64,000 nucleotides of DNA from a plasmid. This document shows, one piece after another, positions 40,101 to 46,100 of this stretch. Position 1 is the first letter of the stretch. Every line of letters starts with the position of its first letter. Where the stretch lies: assembly GCF_058153355.1 (NCBI RefSeq), contig NZ_JBLWLY010000002.1, one strand, 5' to 3'. The position numbers are program-made.

Positions 40101-43100
40101 CCAATAGTTTAATCGTTTCTTTTGGTGATAAATCAAAAGTTTTAATAAAATCTCCATAAGCTTGAATCGCAGCGGAATGACCTTCTTGAAGAGCTATGAA
40201 CAAAGCAGATTCCCCAGCATTATTTCGTGCTGCAAGAACTTCTAGTTTTTCCTCTTTGGGTATTTCGGCTGCCAACAGCGATTCACCGTATTTACGTGCT
40301 GCATCGGCATTTCCATGCCAAATCAATGAAAACAAATTATGGTGGTTATACTCCTTATTATTCTTTGTCGGAATGGATATGCTCTGTATTTTGGCCAATT
40401 TTCTGAAAGAAACACCACTATATCCCCCCCCTGATTTTTCTTCATTGATGGCGTGGGATATAGCGGAATTTGTCACGTTAATGATATTACTTTTCATTCC
40501 TTTATTTTCATTAGCAGTATTGCTGCCTATTATTAGGTGCATATTTTTGTTGTTTGCTGGATGTAATTCATAGTTATTTATTGACATTTTTGTTCATCCT
40601 TTTTGCTAAAAAAAAACAATAACCTATTTTTGTAATGTAATAGATATTAGTCTATTGCTAATCTAAAAAAATCATTGCCACATTGAATGGCTATATTCAC
40701 CAATAAATTCTTTCGATTTCGTATATTGACATATCGTAGATATATCTTATCCCTAAGATTCAATAATCGAGTCCGTTTACCATTCTGTGCAAGCGCCTTC
40801 ACTCAGAAGTGACCGTCAAGGCGATCACCAAACTTGATAATAAAGCAGCTCATTGCCATACGCCAGTCCTTAAGGGGCGTTGTCCATTTCTGTGATGCTG
40901 CCTAGATTTAACTGCCAGCTCCGGCTTATCTACATCTAAATATGTGAGCCTAATACCGCTACACTTTGGCCAGACTATGTTTTTCTCCGGGAAGTGGGCT
41001 AACCGTCTCCATAAAGTGACGAACTTTTTTCAACAGTGGCCATATTGAACGGCACTGATGATTACGGGTTATTGTCTCATGAAGAGCCGGCCACATCACT
41101 GACAGCAGTGACTTCAGGCCTTCAGCACCAGACAGCCTGAACCAGTTAATCCATCGCCCGACAGATTTAGTAATCTAGGGCTGGTTTTTCTTCAGCTGTT
41201 GCGGTTCGAAAGTGCCATTACGATCACGCAGAGTACGGATTTCCAGAGGTTCATCTCCAGTAGTGATAATCTTCGTTAAGCAACCATTGCGGGAATTGCT
41301 GCCAGATCTAAGCTGATTTTTCTCGCACCCAAGATGATGAGTCATATTAGCATTGAGTACGGTTTCATTTTCAGCATCCAATCAAACTGACTGAGATCTT
41401 CAGGATTTTTGAGACTTTTGGCTAGTTCATTAGCTAAAGCCCGCAACTTATTAGATGTCAACTGTTTTTCATTCATAAATTCACCTTCATTTGATATCAA
41501 ATTAAATAGTTCAACATCAGAGAATTATACAAACTTATGTACAGGCTCCTATGATCTTCGAATCCTGAAGATTATAGTGAAAATAAGTTTTCACGTTGAA
41601 ATCCCACATAGTTAGTATATGATAAATAATCATGGATGACCTGATTAACCTCTTGGGGTAGTGCTTTTATAGAAGAATAAATATTCTACTAATTTAATAC
41701 ATCACCTAAAATAGTATTTTTTATGGTTGGTTGAAGGTCGTGGTGATGATGTTAGTCCTTTTGAGAATATTCCAGTGCCAGATCTTACTTATAATAAAGG
41801 GGCTTGGCAGTTTGGATAAGCTATTGTCCTTATTCCACTAATACAAACTTTTTGTAAAGTATATTAAATATACTTCATTTCATACTGAAATCCCCGGAAG
41901 TATTCAATCAAACAATTACACCATAAAAGGAAGAGGGGGCCCTAATTAAGTTGTCAAGCATGTTTATGATACCTGCAGGGTATAAATTTTCTGGCTGCAA
42001 GCAGATACATATAAAACGTCTTTATTGATCCTACCCACATAATATGGACACAGTCGTAAGTGAGGCTCTGGTTTTCAAATTGTTCCGGACTGAGACCACC
42101 ACACCAACGGTGCCGTCGCCAGCGATTGTAATCGCACTCGATATAACTAAACACTGTTGCCCGCACTATTTCCCGATGGATAATAGTGTTCTCCGTGGAG
42201 ATATTCCATTTTCAGCGAATGAAAGGAGCTTTCCACGCAGATTATGCCGCTTTAGCAGTACTTGATAATCTGCCGAAATAGTGCTGACCTCCACGGTCCG
42301 TGTGAACGATAACATTCCGGGGGCTCCTGCGTCGCCACAGAGCCATCTGCAGGCCATTGCAGGTCAGCTGTGCCGCCAAGCGGCATCGACCAACCAATAA
42401 TTGCACGTGACTACAGGTCAATTACCACTGTCAGATACAGCCAGCTTTCATCTGTACGTAAGTAAGTGATGTCCCCCTGCCTACTTCTGGTGTGGGTCAC
42501 TGACGTAAAAATCCTGCGTCAGCAGATTTTCTGACACATGCAGGTTGTGTGCACACTAACTGACGGGGCTGAACTTCTGGGAGGATTTTGCCCTCAGCCC
42601 CTGACAGTGCAGGTTTGTTGCCACGGTTTTTACGTTGAAGTGGTAACCCTGAGCGCACTGTTCATCAGTCAGGCGTGGTGCACAGTAACTACTGGAAGCC
42701 CATGATCGATGTGACACCATCAGTCACATCGGTGGATGTAGGAAGATTCGCTGGGGGTGTCCAAGGATGGGTAAGCGAGGTGGAGAGCGATTTACTACGC
42801 TCGTCTTGCCAACGGAAGACTGTATCTGCTGCTGATATACCTGAAGAACGCAAAAGATGATCTTAGTGAGAAAGAAAAAGCCGTTATGAAGGCATTGACA
42901 CAACAGCTGAAGTAATTATGTCAGTTTTGATTGATGGCTGGCCTCTCGACAACGAGGAAAAATTTATGGAAAAGAAACTTTTCGATGCTCTTATCAGTAG
43001 CATGGAGGAAATGGTTGTCACTGAGAATGGCCAAATCCAGCCAGCCGCAGAACATGTTCACCGCCATACATTGCCGGATGTGAAAGCCATTCGTAAACAT

Positions 43101-46100
43101 GCCGGAATGAAACAGACAGAATTTGCTGAAGTGGTGGGGGCTAGCGTTGACCTCGTGCGCAGCTGGGAACAACAACGGCGTATTCCCTCTGGTATTGCGT
43201 TGAAAATGTAATGAACGCATCCCACACAATTAAACACGGAGCAGTATGATGGTTAAAAGGGGGAAATTGGCAGGTGTGGAGCCTCGCAGATTTCCGGCAT
43301 CATAGTGCCCAATACGGGATGCATAAGCTCCCTCAGACTGGAAACTCCACGAATGAAATATACACCGGTTGGCGTTGATATCGCAAAGCATCTGATTCAG
43401 GTTCACTTCATCAATGAGCACACAGGTGAAGTGGTGGATAAGCGACTACGTAGCAGAGATTTTCTGACGTTCTTTACCGCGAACCCTGCCTGATTGGTAT
43501 GGAGGCTTGTGGAGGCTTGCAGCACTGGGCGCTGACAGCGCGTGAGCTGAAAAAACAGGGTCATAAAGTCCGGTTGTTGCAGGCCCGCTTTGTTAAGGCA
43601 TTCGTCATGGGCAATAAGAATGATGTGATGGATGCCCGGGCTATCTGGATGGCGGGTCAGCAGCCTGGTAAAGAAATTGCCGTAAAAACAGAAGAACAGC
43701 AGTCGGTACTGGTTCTGCACCGTTCCCGCATGCAACTGGTGAAGTTCCGGACCGCACAATTAATGCCCTGCACGGGACGTTACTGGAGTTTGGTGAAACC
43801 ATCCACAAAGGCCGGGCAGCGATGGTTCGGGAGTTCCCTGAAGCACTGGAGCGGATGAAAGAGAGACTGCCACCGCATCTCATCACAGTACTGGAAAACC
43901 AGTACAACAGTTTGAGTAAGCTGGATTCACTGATAGAGTGATATCGAAAAACAGCTTACCAGCTGTGGCGAAACAGAATGAAACCTGTAAGCGGTTGCTG
44001 GATATTCCCGGCGTTGCGCCACTTATTGCGACGACAGCGGTGGCCACCATGGGGGAAGCATCAGCGTTTAAATCAGGGCGAGAGTTTGCCGCATATGTCG
44101 GTCTGGTTCCAAAACAAACCGGCTCCGGAGGTAAAGTTCGCCTGCTGGGGATAAGCAAACGTGGTGACACTTATCTCAGGACATTATTTATCCACGGAGC
44201 AAGAGCGGTGGCATTAGTAGCTAAAGAGCTTGGCCCGTGGATAACCGAACTGAAAAAACGTCGTCCGGCCAGTGTGACAATCGTCGCCATGGCAAACAAG
44301 CTGGCACGAACAGTATGGGCGATAACCGCCCATAGCCGTAAGTATGACAGGAACCATGGTAAGCGGCTCGCCAGAACCGTATTGATATTTACTGAGAGCT
44401 CAGATCAACTTTCCAGGGCAACAGATCGCGTACCCGGTTTGCCGGCCAGTCCTGGATATGCTCAATGACGTAACGCAGCCATTTTTCTGGCCCCACATTG
44501 TTCAGACGGCATGTGCCGATCAGCGAGTACAACACCGCCGCATGTTCGCCACCGCTGTCGGAACCTGCGAGTCGAGTCAGCCGGAGAGAATTTCACTCCC
44601 CGGCTGCTCACGGAACCGTACGTGACACTCTCGCGTCATACGGCTCTTGATCACTCATTTGATGCACGTAGTAAATACCAGTGAACAAATAGCTTCGGAT
44701 ACTCCTTCCTTACCAGCGTCAGCTTTCGCTGAGCCTTCCGGTTCGAAAGTCTGTATTTAGACTGCATCCACTTGAGCAGACGTGACTGCATTGCACTCCA
44801 CAGTCGATAGTTGAAATTTCTGGACCAGAACTTTCCGTAGTACTCGATCCAGCCTCTCACTATCGCATTGTAGCGCCTCGCAAAATCCAGCAAACTCTCA
44901 GCTGTTGAGCGATGTATACGCCACTTCTTGATTGTTTCTGTTATTTTGCGCATTGCTGCATTTGACGCACCCGGCATGCATTTTCGGTACAGTTCGCCTT
45001 TGAAATTCTTCAGCGTACGCACTTTGAAGTCATATCCGAGAAAGGTGAAACTCGTTGCGACGTTTCTCCTTTTAAACGTGTCAATGTAGGCGATATTCGT
45101 TTTCCCTGCATTCAGGACCAGCCCGACTTCCGAGAAGCGCTCCGATAACCTGTTCTTCAGCCTTGTTGCATCACTCATTCGTGAACAATGTACTACAATA
45201 TCGTCAGCGTACCTCTCAAACGGTACCCCCCGATATTCTCTTTCCATCCACAAATCAAATGCATAGTGAAGGAACAAGTTAGCAAGTAGTGGACTAATGA
45301 CCCCGCCCTGCGGAGTGCCTCGTGTTCGGGTTATTAATTCTCCATTTTCACAACTCTGCATTGGCGCTTCCATCCAGCGTCGACAGTACAGGATGACCCA
45401 TTTAGGCATCCCGTGGTGTTCCAGAGCTTTGAGCACCAGATCATGTCTCACATGGTCGAAAAACGCACTGATGTCCACTTCCAGTATCCAGCTATAACGC
45501 CAGCACCGGATGGCACATTGTTTCAGAGCGTCATGAGCTGATTTGCCTGGTCGGTAACCATATGAATCAGCATGGAAAATCGGGTCAAGCTTTTCTTCCA
45601 TGAAAAGTTTTATCGCTCCCTGAGCAATTCGATCGGATACTGTTGGGATCCCCAGAATGCGTTCCTTGCCATTCGACTTCGGGATCCGTTTTTCCAGCAC
45701 TGGTGGCGGAAACCATGTTCCCGAACATAGCCGGTTCCAGATCTTGTATAGATTGCCATCACGTTGCTGGTCGAACATTTTCAAAGTCTGCCCGTCGCAT
45801 CCGGGGGCTCCCTTGTTGCGACGCACATCCAGATATGATGCCCAGACCAGTGCTTTTGGTATTTCAAATGATTTTCGTTGCATCAGTTACGTCATCCCCT
45901 TTTGGGTTGTGTCTTCTGCAATGAATGTGATCCCCATCCCTTCGCTCCAGACCCATTACAGATCTTTCATCACTACTACGAATGGGTCCGCCCCTGTTTC
46001 CCGATACGTGCCGGAAACAGGTTCTCACGTTCCCTGAGATGGTCTGGCCCGGGATCCTGCTGCCTTCACACCGGATGCCGCGCAGTCAGTAAGCAGGTGT

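Follow-up and report, generated by a model that had tools for sequence, protein, structure and literature searches.

Probable remains of an IS-disrupted HigB-2/HigA-2-type toxin-antitoxin operon on a pINV-type plasmid

The plasmid segment analysed here (the window, 64 kb in length) contains an open reading frame for an XRE-type HTH protein behind what looks like a broken toxin gene, which raises the question whether an antitoxin has been retained intact after loss of its toxin. An earlier note on this DNA had proposed exactly that. We found that the region 42690-43208 shows 87.4% nucleotide identity over 519 nt (E 1e-166) to annotated toxin/nadS pairs on Klebsiella and E. coli plasmids, and that the intact counterparts are toxin-first operons encoding a RelE/ParE-family toxin and a NadS antitoxin. 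The pairing noticed before thus stands, in that a remnant of a RelE/ParE-superfamily toxin gene lies directly upstream of its cognate antitoxin gene. The region is, however, very probably a dead pseudo-operon shredded by IS elements, derived from a plasmid-borne type II toxin-antitoxin operon of the HigB-2/HigA-2 kind with the toxin gene in first place, and a functional product is not expected from either gene. The locus is debris within an IS-rich part of a pINV-type (Shigella-type) invasion plasmid, and searches of the 64-kb window (blastn with word size 7, tblastn) gave no match to the rest of the intact operon (toxin 5' end, promoter and nadS 3' end).

The toxin pseudogene (42690..42915, + strand) was delineated by aligning it with WP_032720638.1, an intact toxin of 107 aa. 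Homology starts at 42690 with codon 32 of 107, so that codons 32-107 are kept and codons 1-31 are absent together with the promoter. Within the remaining part, 4 bp are deleted between 42783 and 42784, which leaves 42689-42783 in one frame and 42784-42912 in another (+ strand; stop codon 42913-42915) and accounts for the earlier observation that the upstream toxin part is out of frame; in line with this, tblastn placed toxin residues 32-65 in one frame and residues 65-107 in another. The deleted bases are CGTC in the intact homologue and lie in a non-homopolymer context (GGTGG[CGTC]AGAGCG). The toxin-like frame of 46 codons described in the earlier note (reading frame 1, ARW followed by RAIYYARLANGRLYLLLIYLKNAKDDLSEKEKAVMKALTQQLK) is confirmed; it ends 2 nt ahead of the ATG at 42918, and its resemblance to the toxin, with the E-value given above, is far above chance. 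A complete startable toxin ORF of about 107 aa is absent from the locus, and an ORF scan found no startable ORF of at least 25 aa terminating at 42915. Position 42675, where the earlier note had let the locus begin, is just the GTG of a mechanical ORF in an unrelated frame.

The toxin had been called Gp49/HigB-like. Gp49 (PF05973) and HigB (PF05015) belong to the same RelE/ParE superfamily (Pfam clan) as this toxin, and toxins of these families are likewise often paired with XRE-type HTH antitoxins. Nevertheless, neither HMM matched the repaired remnant or the intact homologue at E<=1, and Gp49/HigB membership was dropped in favour of PF06296 (HigB-2), the sole family that scored above its cut-off. 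The earlier note would have given up its reading if frame correction had left no toxin-family match or if the HTH protein had belonged to an unrelated regulator family; what we found was a match of the frame-corrected remnant (76 aa) to PF06296 with 29.5 bits (E 9.7e-7; gathering cut-off 27 bits) and a match of the HTH protein to the cognate NadS family (NF041265) with 68.1 bits (cut-off 60 bits). For comparison, the intact homologues scored 33.5 bits (toxin) and 85.7 bits (antitoxin), and the 43-aa toxin tail alone 15.2 bits. Judged by these sequence profiles, the toxin family of the wreck is Pfam PF06296 (RelE) and the antitoxin family is NCBIfam NadS.

The antitoxin gene is not the intact 97-aa ORF that it appears to be. 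The mechanical ORF spans 42918-43211, but its ATG at 42918 lies inside the native toxin-antitoxin intergenic spacer (42916..42965, + strand, defined by alignment) and is in frame solely through a 2-nt indel relative to the intact homologues. The conserved start lies further downstream, at the ATG of 42966, with the Shine-Dalgarno sequence GAGGA (42954-42958) 7 nt upstream of it, and the annotated nadS start in the homologue is likewise the ATG of MEKKLF. Consequently, the first 16 codons of the 97-codon ORF are a non-conserved N-terminal extension that arose by chance. An exact look-up found the 97-aa product not to be on record, whereas the 81-aa product is on record and was called by gene callers in two assemblies.

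At the other end, the nadS/higA-2-type antitoxin pseudogene (42966..43208, + strand) comprises codons 1-81 of 100, with 94% amino acid identity to residues 1-81 of intact NadS; homology ends at 43208, nothing of the gene follows and 19 residues are missing. Instead of toxin loss with antitoxin retention, as had been supposed, the antitoxin has thus itself lost its last 19 codons to ISEc11. The remnant covers positions 3-76 of the 94 positions of the NadS model, versus 3-91 in the intact protein, and coverage of TIGR03830 stops at 106/127 in the remnant versus 127/127 in the intact protein. In an AF2 model of the intact homologue (of moderate confidence, mean pLDDT 64.6) the last helices span residues 75-86 and 89-97, which places the truncation point inside helix 75-86. 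The remnant still encodes the toxin-neutralising N-terminal segment and α1-α3 of the HTH domain, but α4 is cut in half, α5 is gone, and a complete five-helix HTH domain is absent. The dimer interface of VcHigA2 is built from α4 and α5 (PMC5416850), and because the cut falls inside the corresponding helix of the AF2 model we infer that dimerisation and DNA binding of the truncated antitoxin would be lost.

Both outer breakpoints coincide with mobile elements. The left junction is formed by an internally truncated IS3-family transposase fragment (42011..42689, - strand; about 85% nucleotide identity to IS3-family transposase genes), which ends exactly at 42689, a point that in the reference copy falls within the CDS, 482 nt in; no microhomology was seen in the sequence at the IS3/toxin junction 42689/42690. 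The right junction, 43208/43209, is the left end of an ISEc11-like (IS110-family) element inserted in nadS (43209..44356, + strand), which from the common left end TAATGAACGCATCCC onward is 92.5% identical to the ISEc11 copy of pFORC69; the HTH ORF is terminated by the TAA (43209-43211) with which this element begins. The ISEc11 transposase gene is split into at least three frames, with fragmentary IS110 HMM matches. The element in turn lacks its 3' end, where the terminus of an IS66 element (starting at 44359) cuts into it.

The adjacency of toxin and antitoxin and the spacer between them are kept, while the autoregulated promoter upstream is absent: the upstream 400 nt of the intact operon have no counterpart in the window, and a crude consensus promoter scan gave no sigma-70-like site on the + strand in 42300-43400. 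Taken together, three lesions, listed here without implied order, would account for the present structure. A deletion or rearrangement probably joined toxin codon 32 to the internally truncated IS3 fragment, with loss of the promoter/operator and toxin codons 1-31; the 4-bp deletion shifted the toxin frame at codon 64; and a site-specific insertion of ISEc11 after antitoxin codon 81 would have removed the dimerisation helices and supplied the TAA stop. In a presumed later step, ISEc11 itself was broken by the IS66 element, which carries a group II intron.

The closest relatives with a solved structure are VcHigB-2/HigA-2 of V. cholerae (VcHigBA2; PDB 5JA8, 5JAA and 5J9I; PMC5416850), which share the toxin-first order. 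The relationship is distant, with only modest protein identity to the Vibrio proteins. The intact enterobacterial toxin homologue aligned without gaps to residues 6-101 of VcHigB-2 (PDB 5JA8; E 3.4e-18) and keeps the equivalents of the VcHigB2 active-site residues R51, R64, Y82 and K84. In the window copy the codons for these residues (R52, R65, Y83 and K85 in chain numbering) are all kept, but they fall in two reading frames and the four residues can therefore not share one polypeptide. The antitoxin HTH domain matched VcHigA-2 with E 6.4e-6, and the layout of an N-terminal helix followed by a five-helix HTH domain is alike in VcHigA2 and in the AF2 model of the intact homologue. Unlike VcHigBA2, the window toxin lacks residues 1-31 and is frameshifted, its antitoxin lacks the C-terminal 19 residues, and the pair is plasmid-borne, whereas VcHigBA2 resides in a chromosomal superintegron. 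We found no functional study under the family name NadS in the literature, the sole report being on the expression of E. coli K-12 nadS, and the mechanism of an intact system is for that reason taken from VcHigBA2. By that analogy, the toxin would be a ribosome-dependent mRNA endonuclease, the antitoxin would neutralise it via a disordered N-terminal helix, and the dimeric C-terminal HTH domain of the antitoxin would repress the operon.

An intact and functional antitoxin or regulator, kept after decay of the toxin as for instance an anti-addiction factor or a co-opted transcription factor, is highly unlikely. It is true that the toxin is clearly dead, that the ORF is open with a Shine-Dalgarno sequence and a start codon and passes the NadS cut-off, that fewer lineage-specific amino acid changes have accumulated in the antitoxin than in the toxin, and that a truncated toxin beside a full-length nadS is known from other plasmids (e.g. 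pHNSHP24-2). Against it stand the ISEc11 cut at codon 81 of 100 and the NadS model coverage that ends at 76/94, the loss of the very helices that make up the VcHigA2 dimer interface, the loss of the operon promoter with no substitute seen and the lack of conservation of the 16 extra N-terminal codons. An orphan (solo) antitoxin is full-length and expressible and has no functional toxin; on the sequence evidence this one is 3'-truncated and without a promoter, and so is not an orphan antitoxin.

With its Shine-Dalgarno sequence, start codon, full N-terminal segment and score above the NadS cut-off, the 81-codon antitoxin may still have residual activity. A peptide of VcHigA2 residues 3-22 suffices for toxin neutralisation (PMC5416850), residues 1-36 of the remnant show only three substitutions compared with the intact homologue, and the AF2 model has its N-terminal helix at residues 2-20, all of which would agree with partial function, i.e. 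neutralisation in trans, without DNA binding, of the HigB-2-type toxins of incoming plasmids. We nonetheless consider such partial function very improbable: a promoter-like site was not found, an intact cognate toxin is absent from the window, the truncated HTH core is likely unstable, and the loss of the whole block from S. flexneri pCP301, together with its absence from every Shigella plasmid in PLSDB, speaks against a selective value. There is correspondingly little chance that the 81-residue stump is expressed (e.g. by read-through) and serves as an anti-addiction peptide that would disarm, independently of DNA binding, HigB-2-type toxins brought into the invasion-plasmid host by competing plasmids from Klebsiella or E. 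coli.

Although frameshifts in single reads are common in long-read assemblies, it is barely conceivable that the frameshift is a homopolymer error in a truly intact operon (a check on reads suggested by the earlier note), because two independent NCBI draft assemblies (GCA_043012465.1 and GCA_015332025.1) carry the identical wreck (99.97-100% identity over about 6.7-6.9 kb), with the same 4-bp non-homopolymer deletion and exact matches to all three junction sequences, and both truncations are structural junctions with IS elements. An exact search for the IS3/toxin junction gave 0 matches in GTDB species-representative genomes.

The reading as an IS-shredded pseudo-operon suggests that the pINV-type lineage once had a HigB-2/NadS-type addiction module besides the known pINV maintenance systems. 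Activity of IS3, ISEc11 and IS66 would have broken this module up, and in pCP301 it would then have been lost altogether. Such a history agrees with the accepted view of IS-driven plasticity and toxin-antitoxin turnover on pINV and does not challenge current understanding. Its value is that of a correction, since an ORF that seems intact when read alone turns out to be an IS-truncated pseudogene with a stop codon donated by the IS element and 16 spurious N-terminal codons; both the toxin and the antitoxin gene merit annotation as pseudogenes.

Family members on other plasmids are found in various states. The pair WP_032720638.1/WP_032720637.1 on p98194-contig_2 (with the Prokka-style label HigB-2/HigA-2) shares the spacer and the Shine-Dalgarno sequence with the window copy; the Klebsiella and E. 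coli plasmid pairs encode full-length proteins of 107 aa and 100 aa and have their upstream regulatory DNA, whereas the window copy is frameshifted and has lost both ends. Independently decayed copies, with damage that is also IS-associated, occur on pHNSHP24-2 and on a plasmid of Escherichia sp. KS167_9B, neither of which has the window junctions. In pHNSHP24-2 a full-length nadS (98 aa) stands beside a 50-aa toxin stump and is a true orphan antitoxin; in KS167_9B nadS is truncated at both ends with other junctions. The KS167_9B copy is cut 3 nt from the same site as the window copy but does not represent the same ISEc11 event, as different AT-rich DNA follows.

Branch dN/dS was low, at 0.17 for the toxin and 0.05 for the antitoxin, and most of the divergence therefore arose while both genes were functional. 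In dN/dS and in counts of lineage-specific substitutions there was a trend toward earlier decay of the toxin, but toxin and antitoxin did not differ significantly (p = 0.12 and 0.43). The lineage-specific amino acid changes in the window copy, 8 in the toxin and 3 in the antitoxin, are suggestive only as a sign of decay; three of those in the toxin (G39C, T45I and G57R) are at residues that are common to VcHigB2.

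The stretch from 42690 to 43208 was 87.4% identical (E about 1e-166, database nucleotide comparison) to a two-gene toxin-antitoxin operon present on dozens of plasmids from Klebsiella and E. coli. The annotations of its genes are 'type II toxin-antitoxin system RelE/ParE family toxin' and 'NadS family protein'; the names HigB-2/HigA-2 appear in Prokka-style records. With this match, the earlier note was right to recognise a toxin remnant paired with an antitoxin. In the reference copy, found on p98194-contig_2, a toxin of 107 aa (WP_032720638.1) and a NadS protein of 100 aa (WP_032720637.1) are separated by 48 nt. 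No toxin/nadS copy in PLSDB or in 5,426 complete E. coli genomes exceeded 87.4% identity to the window, and the PLSDB Shigella plasmids gave zero matches to 42690-43208. Judged from its sequence, the locus is a decayed member of this known family, in which both genes have been truncated by IS activity. The reading as an orphaned antitoxin fails chiefly on the intactness of the antitoxin; the wrong toxin sub-family is a lesser error.

Alignment, local BLAST, tblastn and inspection of the junction all placed the onset of toxin homology at 42690 (+ strand), corresponding to codon 32; the promoter region and toxin codons 1-31 of the intact operon are absent from the entire 64-kb window (local BLAST, tblastn). 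The left boundary proposed earlier, 42675, is part of an ORF in an unrelated frame and not of the toxin frame. A 4-bp deletion lies between 42783 and 42784 (the homologue has CGTC there), and because of it residues 65-107 are found in another frame, in agreement with the proposed frame disruption. Also as described before, the 46 open codons in frame 1, terminating in …RAIYYARLANGRLYLLLIYLKNAKDDLSEKEKAVMKALTQQLK* with the stop at 42913-42915, end 2 nt ahead of the ATG at 42918; this frame lacks a start codon, and 42915 is not the end of any ORF of at least 25 aa. With the 4 bp restored, the 76-aa translation matched Pfam PF06296 'RelE' (29.5 bits, E 9.7e-7; cut-off 27 bits), while the 43-aa tail alone stayed below threshold (15.2 bits). 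The Gp49 and HigB models gave nothing at E<=1 with the repaired toxin, at odds with the suggested Gp49/HigB assignment. The intact toxin homologue aligned without gaps to Vibrio cholerae HigB-2 (PDB 5JA8; E 3.4e-18), and the experimentally defined active-site residues of the latter, R51, R64, Y82 and K84 (PMC5416850), are all matched by conserved residues; the window still contains the codons for these four, divided between two frames.

The 97-aa HTH gene that had been taken as intact exists as a mechanical ORF (42918-43211), but it is not an intact antitoxin gene. Its ATG at 42918 sits within the toxin-nadS intergenic spacer and is in frame with nadS only because of a 2-nt indel; the conserved start, annotated in intact homologues, is the ATG of MEKKLF… at 42966, with GAGGA 7 nt upstream. 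The gene callers of two NCBI assemblies called an 81-aa nadS product, and no record of the 97-aa product was found. NadS homology stops at 43208 after …PSGIALKM, codon 81 of 100, where intact proteins go on with LCLIEREPALINTLRGIHV. The NadS model NF041265 recognised the window antitoxin (68.1 bits, cut-off 60) over positions 3-76 of 94, versus 3-91 for the intact protein, and the match to the MqsA-type model TIGR03830 reached model position 106 of 127, versus 127 of 127 for the intact protein.

The intact homologue, modelled with AF2 at moderate confidence (mean pLDDT 64.6), has helices at 2-20, 39-46, 50-69, 75-86 and 89-97, so that the break at codon 81 is predicted to hit the middle of α4 and to remove α5. 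In V. cholerae HigA-2 the dimer interface is made up of helices α4 and α5 and the HTH of α2 and α3, whereas the toxin is neutralised by the disordered N-terminus, for which a peptide of residues 3-22 suffices (PMC5416850). By analogy, the 81-aa antitoxin would have lost dimerisation and operator binding, and the toxin-neutralising segment would formally still be encoded. A sigma-70-like site was not found on the + strand of 42300-43400, and we consider it very improbable that the stump retains trans-neutralising activity.

The antitoxin is ended by ISEc11 (IS110-family), whose left end (TAATGAACGCATCCC…; 92.5% identity to the copy on plasmid pFORC69) begins at 43209, so the TAA stop at 43209-43211 is IS sequence. 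This ISEc11 has itself decayed: the transposase is broken into at least three frames, and at about 44356 its 3' part is lost, interrupted by the end of an IS66 element whose first base is 44359. The left flank is the same in nadS (43199-43211) and in the IS66 tnpB gene of pFORC69 (1499-1511), with TGAAAATG immediately ahead of TAATGAACGCATCCC, and the reconstructed uninterrupted targets, nadS (about 3511-3523 of p98194-contig_2) and IS66 tnpB, have 10 nt in common that span the insertion point (TGAAAATG|CT). The nadS insertion would fit a look-alike site hit by the sequence-specific (bridge-RNA-type) targeting of IS110-family elements. A partial second ISEc11 left-end fragment (39575-39735, - strand; 85% identical to the pFORC69 copy) adjoins ospD1.

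On its left the toxin remnant adjoins an IS3-family transposase fragment (42011-42689, - strand) that breaks off 482 nt inside the reference CDS, and 42689|42690 therefore fuses two truncated entities. Microhomology is absent at this junction, which is a deletion or rearrangement scar rather than a simple IS end.

A check for a homopolymer error had been suggested, but the lesion is a 4-bp deletion outside any homopolymer and, with all three junction strings of the locus repeated in contigs of GCA_043012465.1 and GCA_015332025.1 (99.97% and 100% identity to window 37466/37687-44354/44357), a sequencing or assembly artefact was rejected.

The region 42011-44356 is clearly divergent from every copy in the 5,426 E. 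coli genomes and PLSDB (identities about 85% for the IS3-like fragment, 87% for the toxin-antitoxin remnant and about 93% for ISEc11), whereas the flanking pINV DNA is 98-99% identical to Shigella plasmids. The left part of the IS3 fragment (42011-42223) is nevertheless shared with S. flexneri pCP301 at 99%. That plasmid is 99% collinear with the window through 42223 and again from 46554, without the 4.3-kb block 42224-46553 that includes the remnant. Because both sides of its junction (pCP301 10515|10516) lie in the interior of an element, the IS3 fragment on one side and IS66 on the other, pCP301 resembles a deletion derivative of an arrangement like that of the window, and probably lost the whole block by deletion. 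In a three-taxon codon analysis, the window branch had a dN/dS of 0.17 in the toxin and 0.05 in nadS. Lineage-specific replacements number 8 in the window toxin and 3 in the antitoxin; G39C, T45I and G57R alter toxin residues shared with V. cholerae HigB-2. The toxin-antitoxin contrasts were not significant (p = 0.12 and 0.43) and do not give the order of gene death; the bulk of the divergence is older than inactivation.

The same family has decayed independently elsewhere. Plasmid pHNSHP24-2 (1507-2004) has a 50-aa toxin stump and full-length nadS beside transposase debris, and is a true orphan-antitoxin form, which the window locus is not. On the Escherichia sp. KS167_9B plasmid (1571-1801) nadS is truncated at both ends, its 3' break lying only 3 nt from that of the window, with AT-rich DNA of unrelated sequence beyond it.

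The window is invasion-plasmid DNA of the pINV type, carrying the WxxxE effector gene ipgB2, ospD1, an autotransporter, traJ/FinP, hok/sok, three IS66 copies and two group II intron matches. One intron (44571-46394, - strand; RT/maturase ORF 44651-45883; Rfam D1-D4 at 46205-46321 and domain V/VI at 44571-44648) lies inside the 3' end of the IS66 element that begins at 44359. The 3' end of a second intron (37772-37849, + strand) adjoins ipgB2; its IS66 flank (37850-38061) is about 95% identical to that of the first (44359-44570) but inverted. Rfam matches at 19396-19565, 23568-23677 and 57610-57797 were to sok antitoxin RNA, the traJ 5' UTR with FinP, and AS-pc02; the plasmid therefore still has transfer-control elements of the F type and one or more type I toxin-antitoxin RNAs.
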